DNA of 40,000 nucleotides from Neptuniibacter sp. Its GTDB lineage: Bacteria; Pseudomonadota; Gammaproteobacteria; Pseudomonadales; Balneatricaceae. The notes below the pieces were generated by a model that was given only the letters and a program-made list of their open reading frames with translations, ran no database searches and had not been told where the DNA came from. The stretch is from the NCBI RefSeq assembly GCF_024231755.1, contig NZ_JAAEQH010000061.1, forward strand, positions 37,762 through 77,761. The letters are read 5' to 3'. Shown here piece after piece: positions 2,614-27,422 of the stretch. The number at the start of each line of letters is the position of its first letter. The stretch's first letter is position 1. The position numbers and the translations under genes were made by a program.

Positions 2614-4296
2614 TTATACTTTAAAAAGCTCATCCAGACTGAGCGCTTCGCGGCTCTCTTGGATAAGGCTAACTAGCGTTTCAGCATATTGTTCTGCCCG
2701 ATCACTCGTCATCCAGTGTTGGTAATCAATCATAGCGAGGTTTTCTTGTTCGCCTAATAGCCAGGCAGAGTCAATATACCGGATAATCTCGTCCTGATTA
2801 GATATCAGAAACTGCTCAAGAGAGGCGTGGCTTGGATGGATACTTCCGTCTTGCAAAGAGCCAGCAGGGCGATTGAATCTGAAGTTTTCAACAATGGCGT
2901 TTAGATCTAGCCCTTGTAATGGTTGGCCAAGAACAGATTCAAATAGCTTTCTTTCAAGCCGCTCTGCACGCTGTGTAACCTCATCAATCATCTGCTGTTG
3001 GATTTCTCGACTCTGGCCCTCAAAATTGTATAACCCTTGCTCCCACAAACTTTCACGCAATAAGCGTGCATTAGGGCCAGTTTCCCACGGCTCGATACCA
3101 TACTGCAGGTATACGGCTTGCTCTACACGTTGCCTGTTACTATCGATCTCTTGCCATTCAAAGCGCGTTTTTGGAAAGTTATCTAATTGATGCTGTTTAT
3201 CAGCAATAGCATCCAAGCTTTGTTTATATGTATCTGCAAATGCTTGTATTAAATCTGCTTGAGGGTGTAATGAATCGCCACTTTGTCCTGCGGGAAGCTC
3301 TTGTTTTATGTTCTCCAAAAGATCCTGCAAACTAAAATTCGGCTGGAGATCTGCCAGTTTTTCATAAAATGCAGCCTCTATGGGCTGATATAGCGTTTGA
3401 TAGGCTGTTACCAATCCGGCCTTTTCATCATGCATCATTTTGCTGGCAACAGCATGATTCAGAGATCGGGCATCACCAATACGCAGGGCCATTTCCAGCG
3501 ATCTCTGCATTAAATCAGTTGTAGCTGATTGGTCACCACCCCAAGCCTGATGGGGTGAAAAGAGATCGTTAAAAACAGGTAGGGAGCCTTCGCTCGAGAG
3601 GGTTTCACCATCACCATAACGGTTTAATTTTGTCTGGGCGCTTTCAGCAAGTGCAGCAGAAGTTTGGTGAGAGCCACTCAGGCCGCTATAACGGTGTTTG
3701 TCGATAATTCGATCTACTTCGCTTGAACGCTCCACCTTCTCTGAATCTAACCACTCAGATAAGGTATTAGGCATCGCTTTTAACTGATCATAATGGGCAG
3801 TCATCTCTAGTATTTCAGACTGGTGTTCCTGCCAAAATTGATTAAGTTTGTCTGATTTCGGTAGTTCGCTACCGTCCATATTTATATGCGGTTCGCGTCC
3901 TGCATCAACATTATCAAGTAGTTGATCGAGTTCAGCGGAAACTGGATAGTCATCTTGTAGCAGTTCGGCTAATTTATTCGAAAGGGTAAAATAGTCATCA
4001 AGATAATTTGAAGCATGGCTACGACGAGTTGAAACCATCTCCTGTAAATGCTGAGCAGCTTCCTTACCGGCTTCTCCTTCAGACATTAACGCCCACCACT
4101 GACTGTTTGCCTGCTCGCTCCATTGAGTGAAGCGAAACTCATCAATAGTTTCTTCGGAGATAACATTTAAGGCCGTACTAAATTCTCCAACCAGCCCTTC
4201 CTGTATCAGTTCTTGAGCTTCCGCTCTCGTGGCATTATGCGAATGTATTTTTCCCGGTGAGGTATTAGGCAAAATTGTTGATAATGATATCTGCAT
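2614..4296 (-). CDS. Hypothetical acidic, Gln/Glu/Leu-rich repeat-containing protein (560 aa)
   Basis: Long ORF with AAGGA 7 nt upstream of the ATG. No signal peptide or TM segment. About four divergent internal modules (see findings). No family recognised. Confidence 0.6.
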   Translation of the reverse strand: MQISLSTILPNTSPGKIHSHNATRAEAQELIQEGLVGEFSTALNVISEETIDEFRFTQWSEQANSQWWALMSEGEAGKEAAQHLQEMVSTRRSHASNYLDDYFTLSNKLAELLQDDYPVSAELDQLLDNVDAGREPHINMDGSELPKSDKLNQFWQEHQSEILEMTAHYDQLKAMPNTLSEWLDSEKVERSSEVDRIIDKHRYSGLSGSHQTSAALAESAQTKLNRYGDGETLSSEGSLPVFNDLFSPHQAWGGDQSATTDLMQRSLEMALRIGDARSLNHAVASKMMHDEKAGLVTAYQTLYQPIEAAFYEKLADLQPNFSLQDLLENIKQELPAGQSGDSLHPQADLIQAFADTYKQSLDAIADKQHQLDNFPKTRFEWQEIDSNRQRVEQAVYLQYGIEPWETGPNARLLRESLWEQGLYNFEGQSREIQQQMIDEVTQRAERLERKLFESVLGQPLQGLDLNAIVENFRFNRPAGSLQDGSIHPSHASLEQFLISNQDEIIRYIDSAWLLGEQENLAMIDYQHWMTSDRAEQYAETLVSLIQESREALSLDELFKV

Positions 4297-6178: not shown

Positions 6179-7444
6179 ATGGAGTTATACATGGGATACA
6201 AGAATATCACTGTTCCTGCTGGTGAGAAGATCAGCGTCAACGAAGATTTTTCCCTTAATGTTCCAGACAATCCTATTATCCCTTATATCGAGGGCGACGG
6301 CATTGGTGTCGATGTTACACCGCCAATGTTGAATGTAGTAAATGCTGCTGTAGAAAAAGCTTATAGCGGCTCAAAAAAAATCTCATGGATGGAGGTTTAT
6401 GCGGGCGAGAAAGCAACCTCGGTTTATGATCAAGATACCTGGCTACCAGACGAGACACTTGAAGCCTTTAAAGAGTTTGTTGTAGGCATTAAAGGCCCCT
6501 TAACCACCCCTGTAGGAGGTGGTATCCGCTCCCTTAATGTAGCTTTACGCCAAGAATTGGATCTTTATGTATGTCAGCGCCCTGTGCGTTGGTTTAAAGG
6601 CGTACCCAGTCCTGTCATTAATCCGCAGGATGTCGACATGGTTATCTACCGTGAAAACTCTGAGGATATTTATGCTGGCGTTGAGTGGAAGGCGGGAACC
6701 CCTGAGGCAGATAAAGTGATTAAGTTCCTCAAAGAGGAGATGGGTGTTACCAAAATCCGATTTGATCAGATGTGTGGTATCGGGGTTAAACCTGTATCGG
6801 AGGAGGGCACCAAGCGTTTGGTTCGCAAGGCCTTACAGTACTGTGTTGATAATGATCGTGATTCTATGACCCTTGTCCATAAGGGCAACATCATGAAATT
6901 CACAGAGGGAGCATTTAAAGATTGGGGCTACGAGCTTGCAAAAGAAGAATTTGGTGCTGAATTACTCGATGGAGGTCCGTGGATGACCTTCAACAACCCA
7001 AACACGGGTAAACAGATCATTGTTAAAGATGTGATCGCAGATGCGATGTTACAGCAGATACTGTTGCGTCCTGCAGAGTATGATGTGGTAGCCACGCTCA
7101 ACTTGAATGGTGACTACCTATCAGATGCTCTCGCAGCAGAAGTTGGCGGTATAGGTATTGCTCCAGGGGCTAATCTTTCAGATAGCGTTGCTATTTTTGA
7201 GGCAACCCATGGCACTGCACCTAAATATGCAGGCAAAGACATGGTAAACCCAGGCTCATTGATACTGTCCGCAGAGATGATGTTGCGTCACATGGGCTGG
7301 ATTGAAGCAGCAGATCTGATAATTAAAGGTATGGACGGAGCTATCGCCGCTAAAACTGTAACTTATGATTTTGAGCGCTTAATGGACGGAGCGGAGCTAC
7401 TATCTAGCTCGGAATTTGGTGATGCGATCATAGAGCAGATGTAG
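6179..7444 (+). CDS. icd: NADP-dependent isocitrate dehydrogenase
   Basis: Strong resemblance to E. coli Icd ([62 protein letters not shown]). The start could instead be ATG 6191 (MGYKNITV...). Confidence 0.95.
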
Positions 7445-7511
7445 CTCGCTATTCTCGCCGGGGCAGATTCAGGTCTGCTCCGCACCTAATTCAAAAAAAT
7501 GTTACTTAAAC

Positions 7512-7540
7512 AAAAAAACCAGCTGGCTGGCTGGTTTTTT
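7512..7540. terminator. Bidirectional rho-independent terminator between icd and cspD
   Basis: AAAAAAACCAGC-tggctg-GCTGGTTTTTT. The stem has an A-run on one side and a T-run on the other, and sits between convergent genes. Confidence 0.8.
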
Positions 7541-7585
7541 GTTCTTACTGCATTAGTTTCGGTCCTTGAATGTTTATTCCTGTTT

Positions 7586-7798
7586 TTATTGTTTTTCGAG
7601 CGGCTTTATCTGAACTGCATGGGTTCCTTTTGGTCCCGGCTGCGTATCAAATTCCACAGACTGCCCAGCCTTAAGGCTTTTATAACCATCTACGTCAATC
7701 GCAGAATAATGAGCAAAGAGATCTTCTTCATGTTCGTCGGACAGGATAAACCCGTAACCCTTCGAATTATTAAACCACTTTACTTTCCCTGTCTGCAT
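7586..7798 (-). CDS. cspD: Cold-shock-domain protein CspD
   Basis: KVKWFNNSKGYGFI ... DLFAHYSAI ... GYKSLKAGQSVEF carries the RNP1/RNP2 CSD motifs. Divergent from clpS, as in E. coli. Confidence 0.9.
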   Translation of the reverse strand: MQTGKVKWFNNSKGYGFILSDEHEEDLFAHYSAIDVDGYKSLKAGQSVEFDTQPGPKGTHAVQIKPLEKQ

Positions 7799-8392: not shown

Positions 8393-10654
8393 ATGTTAAA
8401 CCGAGAACTCGAAGACACGCTCAGTGCAGCTTTCCAGGCCGCAAAGGAAAAGAGACATGAATTTATTACTGTCGAACACCTATTGTTAGCCTTATTGGAT
8501 AATTATGAGGCGCATGAGGTCCTGTCTGCTTGTGGGGCGAATTTTGACGGTATTCGTAAAAACCTTATAGAGTTTATAGAAGAAACAACTCCTCTATTAT
8601 CTGAAACACTGCCTGATCTTGATACGCAGCCCACACTTGGATTTCAACGCGTATTACAGCGAGCAGTATTTCACGTTCAATCCTCTGGAAAGAATGAAGT
8701 TACCGGCGCAAATGTGTTGGTAGCCATCTTTAGTGAACAAGAAAGCCAGGCAGTGTATATCCTGCAGCAGCATGGTATTGAACGCATAGACACAGTTAAT
8801 TTCATTTCTCATGGAATTAGTAAAATTTCAGAGAGTGAGCATGAGCATTCAGAAACACCTCTCGAGAATGAGGGGCTTGCTGAAGAAAACGATGACAGCC
8901 CACTGATCAAATATTCGATCAATTTAAACGTCGAAGCAGAAAAGGGGCGTATTGATCCCTTGGTTGGACGTGATTCCGAAGTGGAAAGGGTGGTTCAGAT
9001 TCTTTCCCGTCGCCGCAAAAACAACCCTCTACTAGTAGGTGAGGCAGGTGTAGGTAAAACAGCGATCGCTGAAGGCCTCGCAAAACTGATTGTTGAGGGC
9101 GAAGTACCTGAAATAATCAGCGAATCAGTTGTATATGCGCTGGATCTTGGTGCGCTATTAGCCGGCACCAAATACCGTGGTGACTTTGAGAAACGCCTTA
9201 AAGGCCTACTTAATGAAATTAAAGGCAAAGATCACGCAATTCTCTTTATCGATGAGATCCATACAATTATCGGTGCAGGCGCTGCATCTGGTGGCTCTAT
9301 GGATGCATCAAACCTGCTCAAACCATTATTGAGCTCCGGTCAGATTCGCTGTATCGGCTCTACAACTTTCCAGGAGTTTCGCGGCATCTTTGAAAAAGAC
9401 CGTGCGTTGGCACGCCGCTTCCAGAAAGTGGATGTTTTAGAGCCAAGCATCGAGGATACATACTCTATCCTTAAAGGACTGAAGCAGCGCTTTGAAGAGC
9501 ATCATGAAATTACATACAAAGATGAATCACTCAAAGCGGCAGCAGAACTGGCTGGACGTTATATCAATGATAAGCATATGCCGGACAAGGCAATAGACGT
9601 GATTGATGAAGCGGGCGCATATCAGCGCTTACTTCCGCAAGAACTGCGCAAATCAGAGATCGAGGTCACGGATATTGAGGCGATCGTAGCCAAAATTGCT
9701 CGCATTCCACCGAAAAGCGTGTCTGCATCCGATAAGACGCAGCTGGCTAAGCTCGACAGCAACCTGAAAATGGTTGTATTGGGTCAGGATGAGGCGATTG
9801 ATACGCTATCCTCAGCTATCAAGCTGTCACGAGCAGGCCTTAAAGAGCCTGACAAGCCTGTAGGCTGTTTCCTGTTTGCCGGACCTACCGGTGTCGGTAA
9901 AACTGAGGTAACAGCACAGCTAGCGCGAATCATGGGGATTGAGCTGGTTCGTTTTGATATGTCTGAGTATATGGAACGTCATACGGTTTCACGCCTTATC
10001 GGTGCGCCTCCGGGTTATGTTGGATACGATCAGGGCGGTTTGCTGACGGAAGCGATCACTAAATCACCTCACTGTGTTCTCTTGCTTGATGAGATAGAAA
10101 AAGCACACCCTGAAGTGTTCAATCTACTCCTTCAAGTGATGGATAACGGCACATTGACTGATAACAATGGTCGTAAAGCTGATTTCCGAAATGTGATCCT
10201 GGTTATGACCACCAATGCTGGTGCTGAGGACATGAGTCGCGCATCAATTGGTTTCACCAAACAGGATCATGCTTCTGATGGCATGGCGGCTATTCGTAAG
10301 ATGTTTACTCCTGAATTCCGTAACCGTCTCGATGGCATTATTCAGTTCAAATCGCTCACCGTCGATATTATTAAAGGTGTTGTTGATAAATTTATCGCAG
10401 AACTGCAAGTGCAGCTGGACGAGAAGCATGTGGTACTACACCTTGATGAAGCGGCTCGCGGTTGGTTTGCGGAAAAAGGCTATGATGAGCAGATGGGCGC
10501 GCGCCCAATGAAACGCCTGATTCAGGAAAAACTGAAAAAGCCTCTGGCAGAGATGATTCTTTTCGGGGAGCTGGCAGAAGAGGGTGGTGAAGTTGCAATC
10601 ACTGTTGATGAAGACGGTGAGTTGCAGGTTGAACCGATGAATAGCTGTGTTTGA
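8393..10654 (+). CDS. clpA: ATP-dependent Clp protease ATP-binding subunit ClpA
   Basis: Clp N-domain, two AAA+ modules (Walker [10 protein letters not shown] and GPTGVGKTE), and [10 protein letters not shown] at the C-terminus. Confidence 0.97.
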
Positions 10655-10758
10655 TTAGTATGAGCGGTGCCCTCACCGCGAAAGACTACCTCTGAGCAGC
10701 ATTGCTGAGGGGTAGCTCTATAATCATTCGGCGTGGGACACGCCTCCAACCAAGCAAC

Positions 10759-10787
10759 AAAAAAGGCAGCTGATTAGCTGCCTTTTT
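10759..10787. terminator. Bidirectional rho-independent terminator between clpA and infA
   Basis: AAAAAAGGCAGC-tgatta-GCTGCCTTTTT between convergent genes. Confidence 0.8.
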
Positions 10788-10818
10788 ACTTTCTGCAAAA
10801 CAGAAGAAGAAGCGAATA

Positions 10819-11118
<300 letters not shown>

Positions 11119-11167
11119 TCAAAGATAAATATAGCATTAGAGGGATTTATCTGCTTTTAGCTGATGT

Positions 11168-11890
11168 TTATTTTCGATCGGTCTGAATCAGCGTCCAATG
11201 ACCATCAATCAGCAGCTCAAATGGCTTGAAAGCAATCTTGTAGCTCATTTTGCGACAGCTTTTTACCCAGTAGCCCAGATAAAGATACTGATAGCCTTGC
11301 TCGATACTGTATTTTATCTGCCAAAGGATACAGAAAGTGCCTAGACTGCGCTTGTCGAGGGACGGGTCATAGAAAGTGTATATAGCGGATAAGCCTTGAT
11401 CCAGCATATCAACAACACTGACCGCAACCAGCTGGTCATTCTGATCCCTGAACTCAAAGAAGTAAGTCTGTTCTTCACCTTCAACTAGAAATGAGGTGAA
11501 TTGATCCAGGCTTGGAGGGTACATATCTCCATCCTGGTGGCGCTCATTGATATAGCGGGAGTACAAAGTGTAATACTCCTGAGTAAAACATGGCTTGCAG
11601 CGTTTTACGGTCAGGTCTTTGTTTTTACTCATCACTCGCTTTTGACTCTTGCTCATTTTGTAGATAGCAAGAGGAATTCTTACCGAGATGCAAGCCTGGC
11701 AATCTTCGCAATGGGGGCGGTAGATATGCTTACCGCTACGCCTAAAGCCCATGTCAGACAACTGGCTGTAAGCAGACTGGCTGATCTCAGCATGCGGATC
11801 AACAAACAGCGTTTTAGCAGTTTTATCAGGTAAGTAACTGCAATCGTGCTCAGGTGTTGCGTAAAAATGTAGAGTACGGAGGTTTGTCAC
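11168..11890 (-). CDS. bpt: Aspartate/glutamate leucyltransferase (arginyltransferase-family Bpt), N-end rule pathway
   Basis: Ate/Bpt family features (HFYATPEHDCSYLPDK, FRRSGKHIYRPHCEDCQACISVRI, LSAIYTFYDP, YLYLGYW). Confidence 0.85.
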   Translation of the reverse strand: MTNLRTLHFYATPEHDCSYLPDKTAKTLFVDPHAEISQSAYSQLSDMGFRRSGKHIYRPHCEDCQACISVRIPLAIYKMSKSQKRVMSKNKDLTVKRCKPCFTQEYYTLYSRYINERHQDGDMYPPSLDQFTSFLVEGEEQTYFFEFRDQNDQLVAVSVVDMLDQGLSAIYTFYDPSLDKRSLGTFCILWQIKYSIEQGYQYLYLGYWVKSCRKMSYKIAFKPFELLIDGHWTLIQTDRK

Positions 11891-11913
11891 TGTATTCCTG
11901 CCTGACCTATATT

Positions 11914-12600
11914 TTACTCATCAAACTGCCAGCTATGCTCTGTTTCTTCATCTAGATACAGAGTTAAGTAGTTCTGAAACTCAGATCTTGAAATCTCTTC
12001 GGCACCTAAGCTGAAGAGGTGGTCATTACTAACTTGGCAGTCTATTAAAGCATAGCCCCAGATTCGCAGCTGTTCGACCATTTTTATAAATGCGATTTTT
12101 GATGCATCTCTGGCGCGACTAAACATTGATTCGCCAAAAAATAGTTTCCCCATCGCCAAACCATACAAGCCGCCCACAAGCTCTCCATCAATATAAACCT
12201 CAACGGAGTGGGCAATGCCTTTATTGTGAAGGTCACAATATGACTGCTTCATCTCTTCAGTAATCCAGGTACCACCATCATCATCCCGCGGGGATGAGCA
12301 TGCCTCAATTACAGCCGGAAAGTTACGATCAAAACAAACGGCGTAATCCTTTTTTTTCAAACGCTTACGCATACTTCTTGATATGTGGATTTGATCTGGT
12401 TTGACTACGCAACGGGGATTAGGGCTCCACCAAAGGATGGGTTCGCCAGGACTATACCAAGGAAAAATTCCGGAACGATACGCAGAGATCAGGCGCGTAG
12501 AAGTAAGATCGCCGCCGGCAGCCAGTAGGCCATTTGGGTCATCCAGGGCATGGTCAATAGGAGGGAAGGGTTCTGTACTGTATTGCAGCCAGGGGATCAT
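11914..12600 (-). CDS. aat: Leucyl/phenylalanyl-tRNA--protein transferase
   Basis: [40 protein letters not shown] and [26 protein letters not shown] are Aat hallmarks. Confidence 0.92.
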
Positions 12601-12639
12601 AAAAAAGCGGAGATCTTGCGATGATCTCCGCCCTCACAT

Positions 12640-13629
<990 letters not shown>

Positions 13630-17265: not shown

Positions 17266-17910
17266 ATGGATAAGGTTCTTTCATCATTCAAAGCTCTATT
17301 CGGCGTGATCTTGTTAACACTTTCAGCGGTCGCATCTGCTGAAACAGGTGCGAAAAAGCTGGAACAGTTACTACAGGGATACGAGCAGTTTTCAACAAAA
17401 TTTCAGCAAGTAACACTGGCTGACAATGGCCGTGAAGCACAGAAAACAGAAGGCACATTACAATTAGCAAAGCCTAATCGTTTCCGTTGGGAAACGCAGA
17501 TGCCATTTCCGCAAGAGATTGTTTCGGATGGCAAATACATCTGGATCTACGACCCTGATCTAGAGCAGGTAACACAGAGAGCTGCTGATTCTCAGCAGGG
17601 CAGTGCACCAGCCCTGATTCTGAACGGCCAGATTGGGCAGCTGCAGAAAACTTACAAAATTCGTTTGGTTGAAGATACAGGCTCAGAGCAGATCTTTGAT
17701 CTAACCCCCATCACTGAACAGCATAGTTTCAGCCAGATCCGTTTAGCATTTGCGGATAACGTGATTTCAGAACTGATGCTGGAAGATGCGCTCGGACAGA
17801 GAACATCGGTAGTTTTCTACGAACAACAACTGAATCCGGGGCTAGATGCAGAAACGTTCTATTTCAGAGTTCCTGCAGATGCTGATCTGATAGTGGATAT
17901 TGAGGGTTAA
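17266..17910 (+). CDS. lolA: Outer-membrane lipoprotein carrier protein LolA
   Basis: Signal peptide plus LolA-family motifs (F.Q....G....G.L...[26 protein letters not shown]). Keeps the ftsK-lolA-rarA synteny. Confidence 0.9.
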
Positions 17911-17911
17911 G

Positions 17912-19261
17912 GTGGATCTGTTTTCCCAAGCTCCTGCATATGAACCTTTGGCCGCGAAAATGCGGCCATTGTCGTTAGCAGAATACTATGGTCAAACCCA
18001 TCTTCTGGGTGAGGGGAAACCACTTCGTACCGCACTCGAGCAGGGTTCTGCTCACTCAATGATTTTCTGGGGACCTCCCGGTGTAGGTAAAACCACACTA
18101 GCCAAGCTGATAGCTCATCATGTGGATGCGCATTTCATCACGTTGTCTGCCGTACTTTCCGGTGTTAAGGATATACGGGTAGCAGTTGAGCAAGCGAAAC
18201 AACATTCAGCGCAGAGCGGTCGTAAAACCATCTTATTTGTTGATGAGGTACACCGCTTTAACAAATCCCAGCAGGATGCATTTCTACCCTATATTGAAGA
18301 TGGCACCATCATTTTTGTTGGTGCGACCACAGAAAACCCATCGTTTGAGCTAAACAACGCACTGCTTTCCCGCGCCCGTGTTTATCTGCTTCGTTCGCTT
18401 GATGAAAGCGACATTCTGGAAGTGCTACAACGGGCCTTAAATGATTCTGAAAAAGGGTTAGGAGATCGACAGCTAAATATCTCTGACGAGATGTTAAACC
18501 GATTGGCTCAGGCTGCAGATGGTGACGCCCGCCGCTCCTTAAACCTGCTTGAGATAGCAGCCGATCTTGCCGAAAAGCAAGCCGACGGCAACGAGCTGAT
18601 TAATGAACAGGTCCTAGAAGAAGTACTGCGCTCTAGTGGCCGTCGCTACGATAAGCAGGGTGATCTTTTCTATGACATGATCTCTGCTTTTCATAAATCG
18701 GTTCGTGGCTCATCTCCCGATGGTGCGCTGTACTGGTATTGCCGAATGTTAGACGGCGGTTGCGATCCGCTTTATGTGGCGCGCAGGCTTGTCGCTATCG
18801 CATCGGAAGATATTGGCAACGCTGATCCGCGAGCGATGCAGGTTGCACTGTCTGCCTGGGACGCATTTGAACGCGTAGGACCAGCAGAAGGTGAGCGCGC
18901 GATAGCTCAAGCTGCTGTGTATTGTGCTAGTGCACCTAAAAGTAATGCGCTGTATCAGGCATTTAATCAATGCATGGCTGACGTTAAAGCTCAGCCCAGC
19001 TATGAAGTACCCGTACATTTAAGGAATGCGCCGACCAGCCTTATGAAAGAGATGGGCTATGGCGATGAATACCGTTATGCTCATAACGAACCAGATGCCT
19101 ACGCCGCAGGGGAATGTTATCTTCCACCGGAAATTGCAGAACAACAGTGGTACCATCCGGAAAGCAGAGGCTTGGAACTAAAAATTGGCGAAAAGCTTCG
19201 CCATCTAAAGAATCTGGATATGCAAAGTCCACAGCGCCGATACGCTGACGATAAGTCCTAG
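17912..19261 (+). CDS. rarA: Replication-associated recombination protein RarA (MgsA)
   Basis: [23 protein letters not shown], Walker [21 protein letters not shown]. Start set at GTG 17912, directly after the lolA stop and GAGGG, rather than the track's TTG 17900, which overlaps lolA. Confidence 0.93.
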
Positions 19262-19279
19262 AAAAGGGAAAGTGCTAGC

Positions 19280-19651
19280 ATGCAACATCTGATCGCAATT
19301 GCCATTGGAGGTGCTTTAGGAGCCATGGGTCGCTATTGGATGAGTGGCTTGCTGAACAATGCTGCTTACAAAATTCCTTATGGCACGCTGACTTGTAACG
19401 TACTTGGTTCTTTCCTGATGGGTGTCTGCTTTGTACTGATTCTTGAGAAATCCAAACTTAGCCCAGAGATGCGGCCACTTCTAATGGTTGGATTTATGGG
19501 TGCATTCACCACTTTTTCCACTTTTTCGATGGAAACTATCGCAATGCTGCAAGAAGGGCATGTTATGTCGGCAGCGATTTATATATTATTAAGCGTCCTT
19601 TTATGTCTGGTCGCGCTTTACGGCGGCCTGTGGATCACACGCTTGTTTTAA
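19280..19651 (+). CDS. crcB: Fluoride ion channel CrcB/FluC
   Basis: 123-aa protein with four TM segments and CrcB motifs (GGALGAMGRY, GTLTCNVLGSFLMG, GFMGAFTTFSTFS). Confidence 0.9.
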   Translation: MQHLIAIAIGGALGAMGRYWMSGLLNNAAYKIPYGTLTCNVLGSFLMGVCFVLILEKSKLSPEMRPLLMVGFMGAFTTFSTFSMETIAMLQEGHVMSAAIYILLSVLLCLVALYGGLWITRLF

Positions 19652-19685
19652 TCCTTGGTATTTAATCTGAGATAAGGTGTTTTAA

Positions 19686-20966
<1,281 letters not shown>

Positions 20967-20985
20967 TCTAAAGCCTGTCTTACAT

Positions 20986-21015
20986 AAAAAACACGCTTTC
21001 GGGCGTGTTTTTTTT
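20986..21015. terminator. Bidirectional rho-independent terminator shared by serS and intI
   Basis: AAAAAACACGC-tttcgg-GCGTGTTTTTTTT. It lies 20 nt after the serS stop and 4 nt from the intI stop. Confidence 0.85.
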
Positions 21016-21019
21016 ATGT

Positions 21020-21988
21020 TTATAAATCCTCAAGTGGGCTTTTAACTGCATGTCCTCCCCGATTGAGAACATGGGTATAGATCTCCGTAGTTTGCACATC
21101 AGAATGTCCCAGCTGCTCTTGAACAGTTCTAATGTCTGCGCCTCGCTCTAATAGGTGAGTTGCAAAGCTATGCCGAAAGCTATGGCAAGTGGCCGGTTTG
21201 TTTATTCCTGCCTCTAATGCCGCCTTTTTCACCGCTCGCTGAAGGGTGCGGTCATAGATATGGTGACGCCTAACTTTTCCCTCACGATTATCAAGCGTAC
21301 GCTGTCGGGCAGGGAATAGGTATTGCCATGAAAATTCAAAAGGGGCATTAGGGTATTTCTTTGCCAGTGCATAAGGCAGATATACTCCATCCCATCGCTC
21401 TGCTTGATTATCTTCCTGAAAATAAGCCCTGCATATATCTAGCTGCCTTCTAAGATCAGCCACACAAGACTCGGACAATGTAGTGATCCTGTTTTTTCTG
21501 CCTTTGCCGTCATTTACTGCAACAGTCAGTCTTTCAAAATCTATATCCTTAACCCTGAGGCGACATACTTCCATTACGCGAAGGCCAGATCCATACATCA
21601 TATTTTCGCAAGATAGGTATTCACCCTGAAGCAGGGCAAACACTGATTTGATTTCCTCTTTACTAAGGACAACCGGAATTTTCTTAGGAGTCTTCGCGCG
21701 ATGAAAATCACCCAATTCAAGCAACGCCTGATCCCAGTTAAGAAACCTCTTATACAAATACATCAATGCGTTTAAAGCGGTCTTCTGAGTCGAAGGGGTA
21801 ACTTTCTGAGTAATTGCTAAATGCTCGAGGTATTGAACAATATGGTCAGCCGATAGATTGCTTGGGTGAGCTCGGTTGTGGAAGCGGATATATCCTAAAA
21901 TCCAATATATGTATGTTTGCTCTGTACGCTTGCTGTAATGACGGGCTCGAAGATGCTCACGAATAGCCTGCATAAAGGGAGAAGACAT
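21020..21988 (-). CDS. intI: Integron integrase IntI (tyrosine recombinase)
   Basis: Tyrosine recombinase boxes (GLRVMEVCRLRVKDID; HSFRHSFATHLL; LGHSDVQTTEIYTHV) plus the IntI-specific insertion LPYALAKKYPNAPFEFSWQYLFP...GKVRRHHI, which parallels IntI1 ALERKYP...VVRRHH. C-terminus HAVKSPLEDL. Confidence 0.95.
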   Translation of the reverse strand: MSSPFMQAIREHLRARHYSKRTEQTYIYWILGYIRFHNRAHPSNLSADHIVQYLEHLAITQKVTPSTQKTALNALMYLYKRFLNWDQALLELGDFHRAKTPKKIPVVLSKEEIKSVFALLQGEYLSCENMMYGSGLRVMEVCRLRVKDIDFERLTVAVNDGKGRKNRITTLSESCVADLRRQLDICRAYFQEDNQAERWDGVYLPYALAKKYPNAPFEFSWQYLFPARQRTLDNREGKVRRHHIYDRTLQRAVKKAALEAGINKPATCHSFRHSFATHLLERGADIRTVQEQLGHSDVQTTEIYTHVLNRGGHAVKSPLEDL

Positions 21989-22002
21989 AGTACATCCTTA
22001 TG

Positions 22003-22018
22003 CTGTTTTTTTATCCAG
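22003..22018. promoter_or_regulatory. LexA-box-like operator (CTG-N10-CAG) just upstream of intI
   Basis: tgCTGTTTTTTTATCCAGca has palindromic TGCTG/CAGCA arms, lies 15-30 nt upstream of the intI ATG, and sits just downstream of a TAAAAT -10-like hexamer on the intI strand. Confidence 0.45.
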
Positions 22019-22154
22019 CATTTTATCTGTGAATGGGTTGTGCAAGGATAGCAGGACAAAAGTGTAATTTTCTCCATGAAGGAGAAAACCTCAGGCAAGG
22101 AAAGCTTATGAATTTCAAATACCTAAAGCTCTCTCTTAATTTTTCTCTACGGAG

Positions 22155-22213
22155 ATATATGTCAAATTGTCGTAATTAATTGCGTCAATCTGTCATATAT
22201 TTAGCTGTTAAAT
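22155..22213 (+). other. attI recombination site (direct repeats plus simple site, crossover G^TTAAAT at 22207/22208)
   Basis: Direct repeats GTCAAattGTCg (22161-22172) and GTCAAtctGTCa (22184-22195) are followed by ATTTAgctGTTAAAT. GTTAAAT fits GTTRRRY and is the exact reverse complement of the cassette-1 R'' box ATTTAAC. Confidence 0.7.
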
Positions 22214-22229: not shown

Positions 22230-22592
22230 ATGCCAGTTTCAATCTTACTTTGTTTATATGGTTGGCCTTTTCTTGTTGGACTGGGGTGTTACTTGGGGAT
22301 CGCCTCCGCAAAGGTTAGATCAGGTTTCCTAGGCTTATTAAAGAGCTATTTTTGTCTGCTGGTGGCAATCTCTCTTTCGTGGTTGGCAACTTTATTCATT
22401 GAGGTGTGGGTCATACCTCACTCAATTAGCGCAGAGTGCGTAAGTCGTCTGGATAGCTGCAATATTACACTGCTAGAATTTGGAGACTGGCTCGAAACAT
22501 GGAATTTTATAGTTTTAGAAATTTCTGCTGTTATGGCGTCCATTGTTTTAGCAGTGAAACAGGTAAAAAATTTAACAAAAACAGGCAGTTGA
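22230..22592 (+). CDS. Cassette 1: small integral membrane protein (120 aa, about 3 TM), unknown function
   Basis: ORF with AGGGA 7 nt upstream and about three hydrophobic segments. The stop lies inside attC1. Confidence 0.6.
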   Translation: MPVSILLCLYGWPFLVGLGCYLGIASAKVRSGFLGLLKSYFCLLVAISLSWLATLFIEVWVIPHSISAECVSRLDSCNITLLEFGDWLETWNFIVLEISAVMASIVLAVKQVKNLTKTGS

Positions 22593-22626
22593 CGCGCAAT
22601 GCGCTCAACTGCTGTAAGCGTTATGT
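22570..22626 (+). other. attC site 1 (57 bp)
   Basis: ATTTAAC-aaaaa-CAG[G]CAGTTGA-c-GCGCaatGCGC-TCAACTGCTG-taagc-GTTATGT. R''/R' boxes, 5-nt unpaired spacers, and an extrahelical G in L''. Confidence 0.85.
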
Positions 22627-22643: not shown

Positions 22644-22931
22644 ATGTTGGCTTTTAATTGTGATCCATTGATAGAGCAAGTTTTTACGGTAGGTTTTGTT
22701 TTATCAATCCTTGTAGTCATCGTTACAGGTTTTGTTGTTTTCTCAAATGAAACAAAACCAGAGAAAGGTAAATGGGTTCTTTTAGAAATACTGGGACCAC
22801 TTCATCCATTAGTAACAAATCGTTATTTGAATGAAAAAGGCAGGAAATGGAAAGCCTATGCTGGAATTGCAATTCTTTGTTTGGTTGCAAGCATACTAGT
22901 TTTGGAGTTATTGCCGTCATGCCAACCTTAA
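22644..22931 (+). CDS. Cassette 2: small membrane protein (95 aa, about 2 TM), unknown function
   Basis: ORF filling cassette 22621-22973, with two hydrophobic segments. No SD sequence, which is common for cassette ORFs. Confidence 0.5.
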   Translation: MLAFNCDPLIEQVFTVGFVLSILVVIVTGFVVFSNETKPEKGKWVLLEILGPLHPLVTNRYLNEKGRKWKAYAGIAILCLVASILVLELLPSCQP

Positions 22932-22979
22932 AACATAACAAAAAACATCAAAAGTCGCCCTACAGGCTTGGGCGTTATG
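22932..22979 (+). other. attC site 2 (atypically short, 48 bp)
   Basis: ACATAAC ... tgggc-GTTATGG. The R'' box is the exact reverse complement of the cassette-2 start GTTATGT. Internal pairing is weak (AA[GTC]GCC-ctaca-GGCTT). Confidence 0.6.
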
Positions 22980-22989
22980 GTATTACACG

Positions 22990-23757
22990 ATGAAAGATCG
23001 GCAGTTAATTTATAAGGTTATCCTCAAGGAAAACACAGAAATCGCCTGGAACAAAGCTGAAGAGACTTTAGAGTTTCGGAATTCTTCTGGAGAACTTTCA
23101 AGTAAAAATCAGATAAGTATTGGGGCAGGTTACACCCGAGAAGGAAAACAACCTAAGATATTGCGTGAAACGAATCATCCTGGTGGAACTGTCAGTTTTA
23201 CACCCAAGGAGACTGTGTATGATCGATATTTGGCGATCGATACAAGCCATGAAAAATTTGGCGAGAATCTCATATGTGTTACGGCCTGCTTGAGTATCGA
23301 GCAAGATATCGATAGTAGTGGTGAACTTAAAAAAGGAGAGTCAATAAGTATTCTCCAATGGCCCCGCCTTGTCTTTTTGACAAATGACAAGTTCAATCCA
23401 GAAAGATATGGCTGGTTTCGATTTATTGAGGCGCTAGAAAAAAGTGATGGCTTTTCGAAAGAGCGCACATATGGAGTTATAGTTGACAGCGATTTGGATC
23501 GACTTCCGGATATAAATTACAGAGCAGAATCCGTGTTCGAGGAATACTATTTACCTGAATGCCTATCTCTAATATATGCGAGTGCAGACACAGGGATGGA
23601 AAACATGAAAAACAAGCTTATCAAGCAAACTGATAAAGTTGCGGCGATTACCTTAAAACAAGCCCAAAAAGAGTTTGCTTCTTTTGAAAACTACGACTTA
23701 GAAGCAGATATTCACGTGCTGGGGTGCCCAAACGACCCAATCAAAGTGCATTTTTAG
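22990..23757 (+). CDS. Cassette 3: orphan cytoplasmic 255-aa protein, unknown function (candidate enzyme or nuclease-like)
   Basis: Single ORF filling the 885-bp cassette. No signal peptide or TM segment. Strand-plus-acidic motifs YLAIDTSH, YGVIVDSDLD and LIYASADTG. No family recognised. Confidence 0.65.
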   Translation: MKDRQLIYKVILKENTEIAWNKAEETLEFRNSSGELSSKNQISIGAGYTREGKQPKILRETNHPGGTVSFTPKETVYDRYLAIDTSHEKFGENLICVTACLSIEQDIDSSGELKKGESISILQWPRLVFLTNDKFNPERYGWFRFIEALEKSDGFSKERTYGVIVDSDLDRLPDINYRAESVFEEYYLPECLSLIYASADTGMENMKNKLIKQTDKVAAITLKQAQKEFASFENYDLEADIHVLGCPNDPIKVHF

Positions 23758-23778
23758 AGGTTTCTACCGTCGTATAAA

Positions 23779-23864
23779 CCATAACAAGGCGGTCAATTAG
23801 CCGAAAAAGCGTGGTTGCGTAAGCGAATCACGCTTTTGGAGGTCCAATTGCCTTGGCGTTATGA
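23779..23864 (+). other. attC site 3 (86 bp)
   Basis: CCATAAC-aaggc-GG[T]CAATT...AAAAGCGTG-loop-CACGCTTTT...AATTGCC-ttggc-GTTATGA. The R'' box is the exact reverse complement of the cassette-3 start GTTATGG. Extrahelical T in L''. Confidence 0.85.
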
Positions 23865-23886
23865 GCACGAGGCAGAACGAAAGCTA

Positions 23887-24084
23887 ATGGAGTCACTAGA
23901 AGAACACACAGTCTTATGCCCCTATTGCGGCGAAGCAATTGACGTACTTATAGATATACAGGAAGTCGGGGACGAATATATTGAAGACTGCCAAGTGTGC
24001 TGTAAGCCCATCATATTCAATGTAGCAACCGATTCAGCTGGCAATTTAACTGTAACAGTGCGAGATGAAAATGAATCACAATGA
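23887..24084 (+). CDS. Cassette 4: CPXCG-motif cysteine-rich (zinc-ribbon) small protein
   Basis: MESLEEHTVLCPYCGEAIDVLID...IEDCQVCCKPIIF has the CPxCG ... CxxCC pattern. Start trimmed from the track's 23815 (alternative start inside attC3) to ATG 23887. Confidence 0.7.
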   Translation: MESLEEHTVLCPYCGEAIDVLIDIQEVGDEYIEDCQVCCKPIIFNVATDSAGNLTVTVRDENESQ

Positions 24085-24090
24085 TTCAAT

Positions 24091-24144
24091 ATATAACAAG
24101 TAAAACAAGCCGCCCTATTAATGAGCGGCTGCTAGGCGTTAGAG
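24091..24144 (+). other. attC site 4 (54 bp)
   Basis: ATATAAC-aagta..CA[A]GCCGC-cctattaatga-GCGGCTG-c-taggc-GTTAGAG. Extrahelical A in L''. The R' heptamer is repeated immediately (GTTAGAG-G-GTTAGAG). Confidence 0.7.
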
Positions 24145-24195: not shown

Positions 24196-24351
24196 ATGAT
24201 GAGTAGAGCCGAACTAGGTAAAGCATGGCGAGAGGGGTATTCTGCTGGTAAAGAGGGGAAACTTAGAGCTTCGAATCCATATTCTGGTATAGAACCCTCT
24301 TTAGCAAAAGAGTGGGACTTAGGCTGGAAAGAAGGGATGAATATCCATTAA
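24196..24351 (+). CDS. Rmf/CrpP-fold small protein (51 aa)
   Basis: Below the ORF-track size cutoff. ATGATG is preceded by AGGGA. MMSRAELGKAWREGYSAGKEGKLRASNPYSGIEPSLAKEWDLGWKEGMNIH fits the G(Y)xAG..G...(C/N)PY....W..GW.EG pattern of ribosome modulation factor / CrpP. Confidence 0.6.
   Translation: MMSRAELGKAWREGYSAGKEGKLRASNPYSGIEPSLAKEWDLGWKEGMNIH

Positions 24352-26018: not shown

Positions 26019-27422
<1,404 letters not shown>

Follow-up and report, generated by a model that had tools for sequence, protein, structure and literature searches.

A mobile integron cassette in Neptuniibacter with a single gene for a predicted RNase H-like enzyme of an undescribed family

Structure of the integron and its third cassette

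A stretch of 40,000 nucleotides from Neptuniibacter sp. (contig NZ_JAAEQH010000061.1, positions 37,762 to 77,761 of the forward strand), called the window here, contains a chromosomal integron whose third cassette is the subject of this report. Cassette 3 carries one gene between two attC sites. The gene product, P0001, is a protein of 255 amino acids (aa) that is predicted to be an RNase H-like enzyme with an additional N-terminal domain. The integron stands next to serS, and its integrase gene, intI, was recognised by matches to the Pfam families Phage_integrase and Phage_int_SAM_4. The features that define the cassette and its surroundings, in positions of the window, are the following.

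22975-23858, + strand: cassette 3, 884 bp, from the TT of the upstream R' core to the G of its own R' core
22990-23757, + strand: open reading frame (ORF) of P0001, 255 aa, stop codon included
22933-22980, + strand: attC of the preceding cassette, R'' CATAAC ... R' GTTATGG, 48 nt; left edge of cassette 3
23779-23864, + strand: attC of cassette 3, R'' CCATAAC ... R' GTTATGA, 86 nt
~22207-22210, + strand: attI crossover (GTT), start of the variable array
21020-21988, - strand: intI, integron integrase, 322 aa
19692-20966, + strand: serS, before intI
26019-27383, - strand: purB, after a series of short co-oriented ORFs

The integrase of the window has thousands of homologues named 'integron integrase', the closest named one being from Neptuniibacter with 74% identity, and the sequence at the attI point reads ...agctGTTaaat. 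Cassette 3 is bounded on both sides by the R' core GCGTTATG (22972-22979 and 23856-23863). Without mismatches, this core is found at 22618, 22972, 23856, and only one further site in the 40 kb. The span of the cassette follows from applying the G|TT crossover to both R' cores. A first-pass annotation, made from the letters of the window alone, had recognised a real cassette here but began it one base early (22974-23858, 885 bp). It had also described the flanking sites as the two best attC sites. This is true of the downstream site, whose bottom-strand DNA fold (-17.5 kcal/mol, ends paired) is the best of the array, but not of the upstream site, which has complementary R'' and R' cores but is short and folds weakly (-5.7 kcal/mol). 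The cassettes have a GC content of 0.38-0.43 (cassette 3, 0.39-0.43) compared to 0.46-0.50 in the flanking core genes, and no promoter above background was found inside the cassette region. As an integron cassette, cassette 3 is intact and mobile, with a single gene.

Two related integrons, L082 and L083, adjoin serS in the same way as the integron of the window, and their integrases are 92% and 78% identical to that of the window. Their cassettes are entirely different from those of the window, and no relative of P0001 is encoded in either. The window and L082 share 79% nucleotide homology over 17401-22210, with the GTT of the putative attI as the end point. It follows that the cassette was acquired and belongs to the variable part of the integron. 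Where the window has its own cassettes, L082 carries a TIR_2-domain cassette (3325-4020, 231 aa), itself a candidate of the defence type, and L083 encodes a DUF5677 protein of 506 aa (6227-7747).

The P0001 protein and its family

P0001 is soluble by its hydropathy, with no transmembrane segment or signal-like start, because no 19-residue window of its Kyte-Doolittle profile rises above 0.63 and the N-terminus is polar. One ORF of 255 aa lacking a transmembrane segment and a signal peptide had been proposed from the start, and the ORF at 22990-23757 agrees with this. The protein has no family match in Pfam (E <= 0.1), NCBIfam, or PHROGs, and no real match to PDB sequences by phmmer or by profile search. 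Matches to the P22 tailspike, Utp24, and an L-amino-acid oxidase had E values of ~1 and are noise. Thus, the remark in the first-pass annotation that no family could be recognised holds for Pfam, NCBIfam, PHROGs, PADLOC, and the PDB sequences. Its description of the protein as an orphan does not. A word-indexed search returned 19 homologues with lengths of 250-290 residues, and an exhaustive phmmer search of cluster representatives (50% identity) returned 684 clusters at E <= 1e-3, of which 179 had E <= 1e-10. One homologue, P0002 (255 aa, locus L005), is 57% identical to P0001 and aligns with it from end to end, which supports the limits of the ORF. In their source records, the relatives are named 'hypothetical' or 'SEC-C domain-containing'. 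An N-terminal SEC-C zinc motif occurs in 12 of 78 sampled relatives (~15%); P0001 itself lacks it.

The family is rare and widely scattered. Among 399 further genomes of the class, it was present in one (~0.25%), and it is spread thinly over several phyla, namely Acidobacteriota, Bacteroidota, Bacillota, and Desulfobacterota, besides the gammaproteobacteria. The gammaproteobacterial members come from a metagenome-assembled genome (MAG) of a lucinid-clam symbiont and from Vibrio lentus. Other members were found in a Pyrinomonadaceae MAG (Acidobacteriota), in Sediminibacterium and one more Bacteroidota genome, in Hydrogenoanaerobacterium (Bacillota), in a Syntrophales MAG, and on a Desulforapulum plasmid. 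A scan of genome contigs with a tighter alignment gave three family loci. The V. lentus member (227 aa) lies at the end of a 379-kb contig. After it, on the same strand, come a DUF3990-like gene and two genes for proteins of 139 aa and 456 aa, the latter of no named family. This region (L084, 57-3368) may be another variable island.

Predicted fold and candidate active site

An AlphaFold2 model of P0001, built with the 19-sequence alignment, had a predicted local distance difference test (pLDDT) score of 90.8 and a predicted template-modelling (pTM) score of 0.85. It is well supported by this model that residues 79-230 (23224-23679, + strand) form an RNase H-like domain. The elements of the domain follow the order b1-b2-b3-aA-b4-aB-b5-aE, in which strands b1, b2, and b3 comprise residues 79-90, 93-103, and 121-131, helix aA residues 137-151, strand b4 residues 161-165, helix aB residues 169-176, strand b5 residues 192-197, and helix aE residues 206-228. 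This agrees with the core fold of the RNase H-like superfamily, a mixed sheet of five strands with helices on its sides. When the model was compared with the PDB by Foldseek, the top 50 matches consisted of 46 RNase H structures (bacterial or archaeal RNase H1 and retroviral RNase H) and four NurA chains. The E values began at 4e-3, the probability reached 1.00, and the template-modelling (TM) score to the target reached 0.55. The matches in BFVD were mostly viral or phage RNase H, with E values from 3e-4 and TM scores to the target of up to 0.67.

Conservation was counted over the 78 diverse relatives, which are ~25% identical to P0001. Conserved polar and aromatic positions of the domain are listed below, with the codon positions of the acidic ones.

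D84, codon GAT, 23239-23241, + strand: middle of strand b1; Asp in 77/78
E138, codon GAA, 23401-23403, + strand: N-terminus of helix aA; 78/78
D166, codon GAC, 23485-23487, + strand: directly after b4 (C-end), in the motif VDS; 77/78
D200, codon GAC, 23587-23589, + strand: loop after b5, in the motif YASAD; Asp in 71/78 and Glu in 5
D215, codon GAT, 23632-23634, + strand: helix aE; 73/78
N208: helix aE; 74/78
W142: helix aA; 76/78
N176: helix aB; 76/78
Y196: strand b5; 74/78

The first-pass annotation had guessed an RNase H-like or PIWI-type nuclease from three motifs around D84, D166 with D168, and D200. The RNase H-like part of this guess is borne out by the modelled domain, by the RNase H structures that lead the Foldseek matches, and by the near-invariance of the flagged aspartates at catalytic positions. 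The three motifs are real and conserved far beyond chance. Among their residues, D84, D166, and D200 stand. D168, at the start of the helix after b4, is only semi-conserved (acidic in 62/78), and the motifs missed the invariant E138 and the conserved N208 and D215. The PIWI-type part was abandoned. No Argonaute appeared in the top 50 PDB matches or the BFVD matches, and the only other part of the 255-aa protein is a beta domain of 78 residues, with no MID or PAZ domain.

How do these positions compare with known RNase H-like enzymes? A central Asp in b1 is universal in the RNase H-like superfamily (PMC3985635, Majorek et al. 2014). A Glu in helix alpha1 is a trait of RNase H1, EndoV, NurA, and YkuK. 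Endonucleases have the second catalytic residue at the C-end of b4, whereas 3'-5' exonucleases have it in helix alpha2, along with D-x-E in b1 (PMC3985635). In the P0001 family, strand b1 carries the motif D84-T85-(S/N)86. The positions of D84, E138, and D166 therefore correspond to the endonuclease-type pattern of RNase H1, EndoV, and NurA. The exonuclease pattern is absent because b1 reads D-T-S/N. The topology of the model suggests that the carboxylates converge on one site.

The same fold is common to DDE transposases and integrases and to DnaQ-type DEDD 3'-5' exonucleases, and the domain could in principle be a relic of either kind. The Y196-x3-D200 spacing in P0001 resembles the Exo III motif Y-x3-D, a point for the exonuclease. 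Such an origin is nevertheless far-fetched. There is no transposase, integrase core, or DnaQ-type exonuclease in the top 50 fold matches, b1 has D-T-S/N rather than D-x-E, the second Asp (D166) is placed at the end of b4 and not in helix alpha2, and the unit is bounded by attC sites rather than inverted repeats. A DnaQ-like DEDD exonuclease was rejected on the b1 motif and the position of D166.

The N-terminal domain

The rest of the modelled protein consists of a compact domain with one strongly conserved element.

22990-23223, + strand: N-terminal all-beta domain, residues 1-78, six strands in the AlphaFold2 model
23131-23157, + strand: hairpin tip Y48-K56 (Y-x-R-x-G-K-x-P-K), conserved and basic

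When the domain was folded alone, the same six strands were predicted with a pLDDT of 83.5. In the hairpin, Y48 is conserved in 72, R50 in 77, and K56 in 77 of the 78 relatives. Foldseek found no fold neighbour of the domain in the PDB (best E ~1); the matches to the CaMKII hub and to Sm proteins, with E ~1 and TM scores below 0.3, were discarded. Because the hairpin tip is basic and aromatic, the domain may serve as the recognition part of the protein and bind nucleic acid or another ligand. A domain of no known fold may thus define which substrate or trigger the protein recognises.

One relative departs from this architecture. P0320 (L086, 8001-9482), a protein of 493 aa, has an N-terminal trypsin-like peptidase domain fused to the family core, has lost the basic hairpin, and has Asn in place of D84. 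Its sequence suggests that the nuclease module is probably inactive and was recruited to a protease.

Relationship to known enzymes and defence systems

The best structural match of P0001 is RNase H1, the clade of bacterial RNase HI and the RNase H of retroviral reverse transcriptases (PF00075; clade E, Majorek et al. 2014). The two have the same order of elements, b1-b2-b3-aA-b4-aB-b5-aE. Furthermore, P0001 has carboxylates in b1, in helix aA, at the end of b4, and in the C-terminal helix, as in the DEDD arrangement of RNase H1, and its VDS motif resembles the TDS motif of the genome's own RNase HI. However, there is no detectable sequence relationship, and P0001 has no PF00075 match. P0001 also differs in the extra 78-residue beta domain with no known fold, in the placement of E138 at the very start of aA, and in the extra conserved D200 after b5. 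The distributions differ as well. The P0001 family is cassette-borne and very rare, whereas rnhA is found in 61 of 61 sampled genomes, and a canonical rnhA is present elsewhere in this genome.

The catalytic pattern with a Glu in helix alpha1 is also that of EndoV, NurA, and YkuK (PMC3985635). NurA chains rank 6, 7, and 10 among the PDB fold matches, but with TM scores of 0.1-0.2 and low probability. The b1 motif of the P0001 family, (I/V)-D-T-(S/N), appears to resemble the D-G-S and D-V-S motifs of the EndoV, NurA, and YkuK families. P0001 differs from these families in having no Pfam match, and no HerA partner, as for NurA, occurs among its neighbours. EndoV is absent from this genome. The P0001 family is an undescribed one within a known superfamily. 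What sets it apart is that its N-terminal domain is new and its association with integrons unusually clear.

Most integron cassettes have no known function, and a sizeable share of them were recently shown to be compact genes for phage defence. About 18% of the tested cassettes of unknown function from the V. cholerae integron protect against phages, many of them via small nuclease fusions (10.1101/2024.07.02.601686). Anti-phage cassettes were likewise reported for mobile integrons (10.1101/2024.07.02.601719) and from Vibrio cassette libraries. P0001 is similar to these in being encoded by a compact one-gene cassette of a chromosomal integron and in having a nuclease-type domain. It differs in the kind of domain, because the nuclease domains of those cassettes are Mrr/RecB-like, HNH, or RmuC-like, and these reports on anti-phage integron cassettes make no mention of an RNase H-type protein.

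A second point of comparison is Rugutis, a single-gene anti-phage system from a Lactococcus plasmid, whose protein of 359 aa (pUCCL633_059) contains a SEC-C motif (PMC11381338). Outside SEC-C, its authors found no structural neighbour (PMC11381338, PMC13064643). As in the P0001 family, a single gene with no annotated fold is carried on mobile DNA, and the SEC-C motif recurs in the 12 relatives mentioned above. No match to the family was found on lactococcal plasmids. The SEC-C motif alone gives the link to Rugutis, which is a lead, and the family is possibly a distant relative of SEC-C-bearing systems of this type.

Carriage of the family by integrons, prophages, and chromosomes

A survey of the homologues for attC sites, as the first-pass annotation had suggested, found at least five distinct family members that directly adjoin such sites. 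These are the member of the window, those of L005 and L022, one shared by L040, L041, and L042, and one on the plasmid pHRM2a. At L005, the locus of the 57% homologue, an attC site ends 13 nt 5' of the start codon, an R'' core CATAAC is located ~15 nt 3' of the stop codon, and canonical attC sites occur further upstream in the array. L040, L041, and L042 contain one and the same cassette, 97.5-99.4% identical, from three metagenome samples. The identity stops exactly at the R' core GTTA, and the sequences downstream of it then differ. This break reads as the footprint of integrase-mediated movement. It supplies direct sequence evidence that integrons move the family between hosts.

The fifth case is the mobilizable plasmid pHRM2a of Desulforapulum autotrophicum (NC_012109.1), in which an attC-like site follows the family member. 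The region from 48 to 68.7 kb (L089/L090) is a one-directional array of ~25 genes that resembles a large integron array, and it includes lnu(F), genes for a TIR protein, GIY-YIG and exonuclease genes, and RelE/ParE and HigB toxins. A duplicated element of ~180 bp is also present after the family member.

The toxins of pHRM2a raise another explanation, namely that the P0001 gene is itself a toxin or selfish stabilising gene: either a nuclease damaging to cells in which the array is lost or misregulated, or a weapon that mobile elements use against one another. Integron arrays are rich in toxin-antitoxin genes, toxin-antitoxin cassettes are mentioned by Darracq et al. (10.1101/2024.07.02.601686), and P0001 is a predicted nuclease with no visible regulator. 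Against this, neither the cassette nor the other loci have a small antitoxin-like gene next to it, there is no conserved partner, and a 255-aa protein of two domains is unlike known type II toxins. On balance, a toxin is quite improbable.

Two family members are in prophages. The early region that holds one of them also contains cI- and Cro-like repressors, and two GmrSD genes are a few kb off; the other is at the end of a prophage, beside the integrase. On a prophage-like contig with a member (L003), two adjacent genes of the GmrSD type (type IV restriction) occupy 10580-12721, and split fragments of an insertion sequence (rve) lie a few kb away. Lone members also occur among ordinary chromosomal genes (L001, L004).

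Does the gene act together with a neighbour? Among 141 neighbour ORFs at 28 non-redundant loci, no conserved partner was found, that is, no Pfam or PADLOC family was shared beyond pairs of loci. Because of this, the idea of a multi-gene system was dropped. The absence of a conserved neighbour and the recurrence of the family in cassettes agree with the initial view of cassette 3 as a single-gene cassette. Some loci do have defence-like neighbours, which comprise GmrSD, an MmeI-type restriction enzyme, a weak SIR2-like match, DUF4238, EndoU, PIN_8, and TIR. Scattered neighbour matches of the PADLOC type were to MmeI, TnpB, Csx1, PIN, and a homing endonuclease.

Proposed mechanism and role

The findings converge on an explanation in which a mobile cassette carries a single gene for an RNase H-like enzyme of an undescribed family, to which a probability of about 0.6 is given. 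As regards its chemistry, it is probable from the model that P0001 is a nuclease that hydrolyses phosphodiester bonds with two metal ions. P0001 would be a stand-alone enzyme in which a beta domain for recognition, with its basic hairpin (Y48, R50, K56), precedes the RNase H-like domain. D84, E138, D166, and D200/D215 would bind two divalent metal ions, and the enzyme would cleave the phosphodiester bond as an endonuclease, as RNase H1, EndoV, and NurA do. From the nearest folds, a first guess for its substrate would be an RNA/DNA hybrid or a structured replication intermediate. The role of P0001 might be to attack the nucleic acid of invading phages or plasmids, which would make it a single-gene defence.

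Defence against phages or plasmids is the most likely role because the gene travels alone in integrons and accessory regions of prophages and has a very patchy distribution. The assignment is tentative and falls somewhat short of an even chance, a level set by the frequency of anti-phage genes among V. cholerae cassettes, the nuclease fold, the patchiness, and the carriage by cassettes and prophages. A more specific proposal is a single-protein immune system, in which the novel beta domain would act as a sensor and the RNase H-type endonuclease would destroy a replication intermediate of the phage or plasmid, for instance an RNA/DNA hybrid, with integron cassettes as the main vehicle that carries the gene between distant phyla. 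This version is slightly more doubtful than defence in general. If it is true, P0001 would be the first case of a stand-alone defence effector of the RNase H1-like kind.

Several results weigh against a defence enzyme of the RNase H-like kind. PADLOC-DB 2.0.0, a search proposed in the first-pass annotation, gave zero families for P0001 at E <= 1. About 5% of neighbour ORFs match PADLOC models, a figure obtained without a control set, and no enrichment in defence islands is claimed for this reason. The 50,697 phage records searched contained no homologue of the family, and the 72,556 plasmids contained a single one. Some members stand alone among ordinary chromosomal genes, as noted for L001 and L004. 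Cassette 3 holds nothing that explains how a free nuclease would spare its host. The Foldseek statistics are modest (E 3e-4 to 4e-3, TM to target 0.4-0.67), with a consistent ranking. Finally, comparison by hhalign of the 78-sequence family profile with the genome's own RNase HI, and with a 30-sequence alignment of RNase HI from across the phylum, gave nothing significant. The best local alignment placed 'IVDS' on 'STDS' with P=0.055, which is a hint only. From this insignificant profile similarity it follows that the family is a separate lineage of the fold and not a divergent rnhA. The family was found at one locus in the 2.9 million contigs of IMG/VR, and this, together with its absence from the phage records, makes a phage origin of the gene unlikely.

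The modest fold statistics and the insignificant profile comparison with RNase HI leave some room for the view that P0001 is not active as a nuclease, either because the RNase H-like domain is a binding or sensor module or because the fold prediction is misleading. The protease-fused relative, with D84 changed to Asn and the basic hairpin lost, points in the same direction. However, between four and six polar or acidic positions hardly vary although the relatives share only ~25% identity, a pattern that marks a catalytic site, and the change of D84 to Asn is exceptional among the 78. An inactive protein is thus very unlikely, even more so than a toxin.

Alternatively, the same RNase H-like enzyme may have no part in immunity and may serve as an accessory in nucleic-acid maintenance, such as the removal of RNA/DNA hybrids or primers or repair, that travels as cassette cargo. 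The nearest folds are housekeeping and viral RNase H1, several lone homologues (L001, L004) are placed among ordinary chromosomal genes, and the PADLOC result for P0001 is negative, all of which fit such a function. Yet a canonical rnhA already exists in the genome, and presence in ~0.25% of the genomes sampled from the class is much too patchy for maintenance. Further points against it are the novelty of the N-terminal domain and the repeated occurrence of the family in cassettes and prophages. Maintenance is therefore judged unlikely, though less so than the other alternatives to defence. If P0001 were an ordinary paralogue of RNase H, it would indicate that integrons also exchange housekeeping genes that act on nucleic acids.

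With defence as the favoured role of the cassette-borne enzyme, the family offers a concrete candidate, a predicted enzyme of 255 residues with D84, E138, D166, D200, and D215 as targets for mutation. If it is active, an RNase H-type effector would be added to the defence repertoire, and ~680 unannotated protein clusters would gain a name.

Other cassettes of the array

The remaining cassettes of the window encode small proteins. Cassettes 1 and 2 (22230-22592 and 22644-22931) specify two small proteins (120 and 95 aa) that are hydrophobic and have no family match in Pfam or PADLOC. Cassette 4 (23859-24144) encodes a CPXCG cysteine-rich protein (Pfam PF14255). Its listed TTG start at 23815 falls within the attC site of cassette 3, and an ATG near 23887 is probably the true start. 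The attC site of cassette 4 (~24094-24143) is short and shares its architecture with the weak site at 22933-22980. In the distal array, an ORF of 51 aa (24196-24351), with no clear attC site downstream, matches the ribosome modulation factor family (PF04957, E 1.8e-10).

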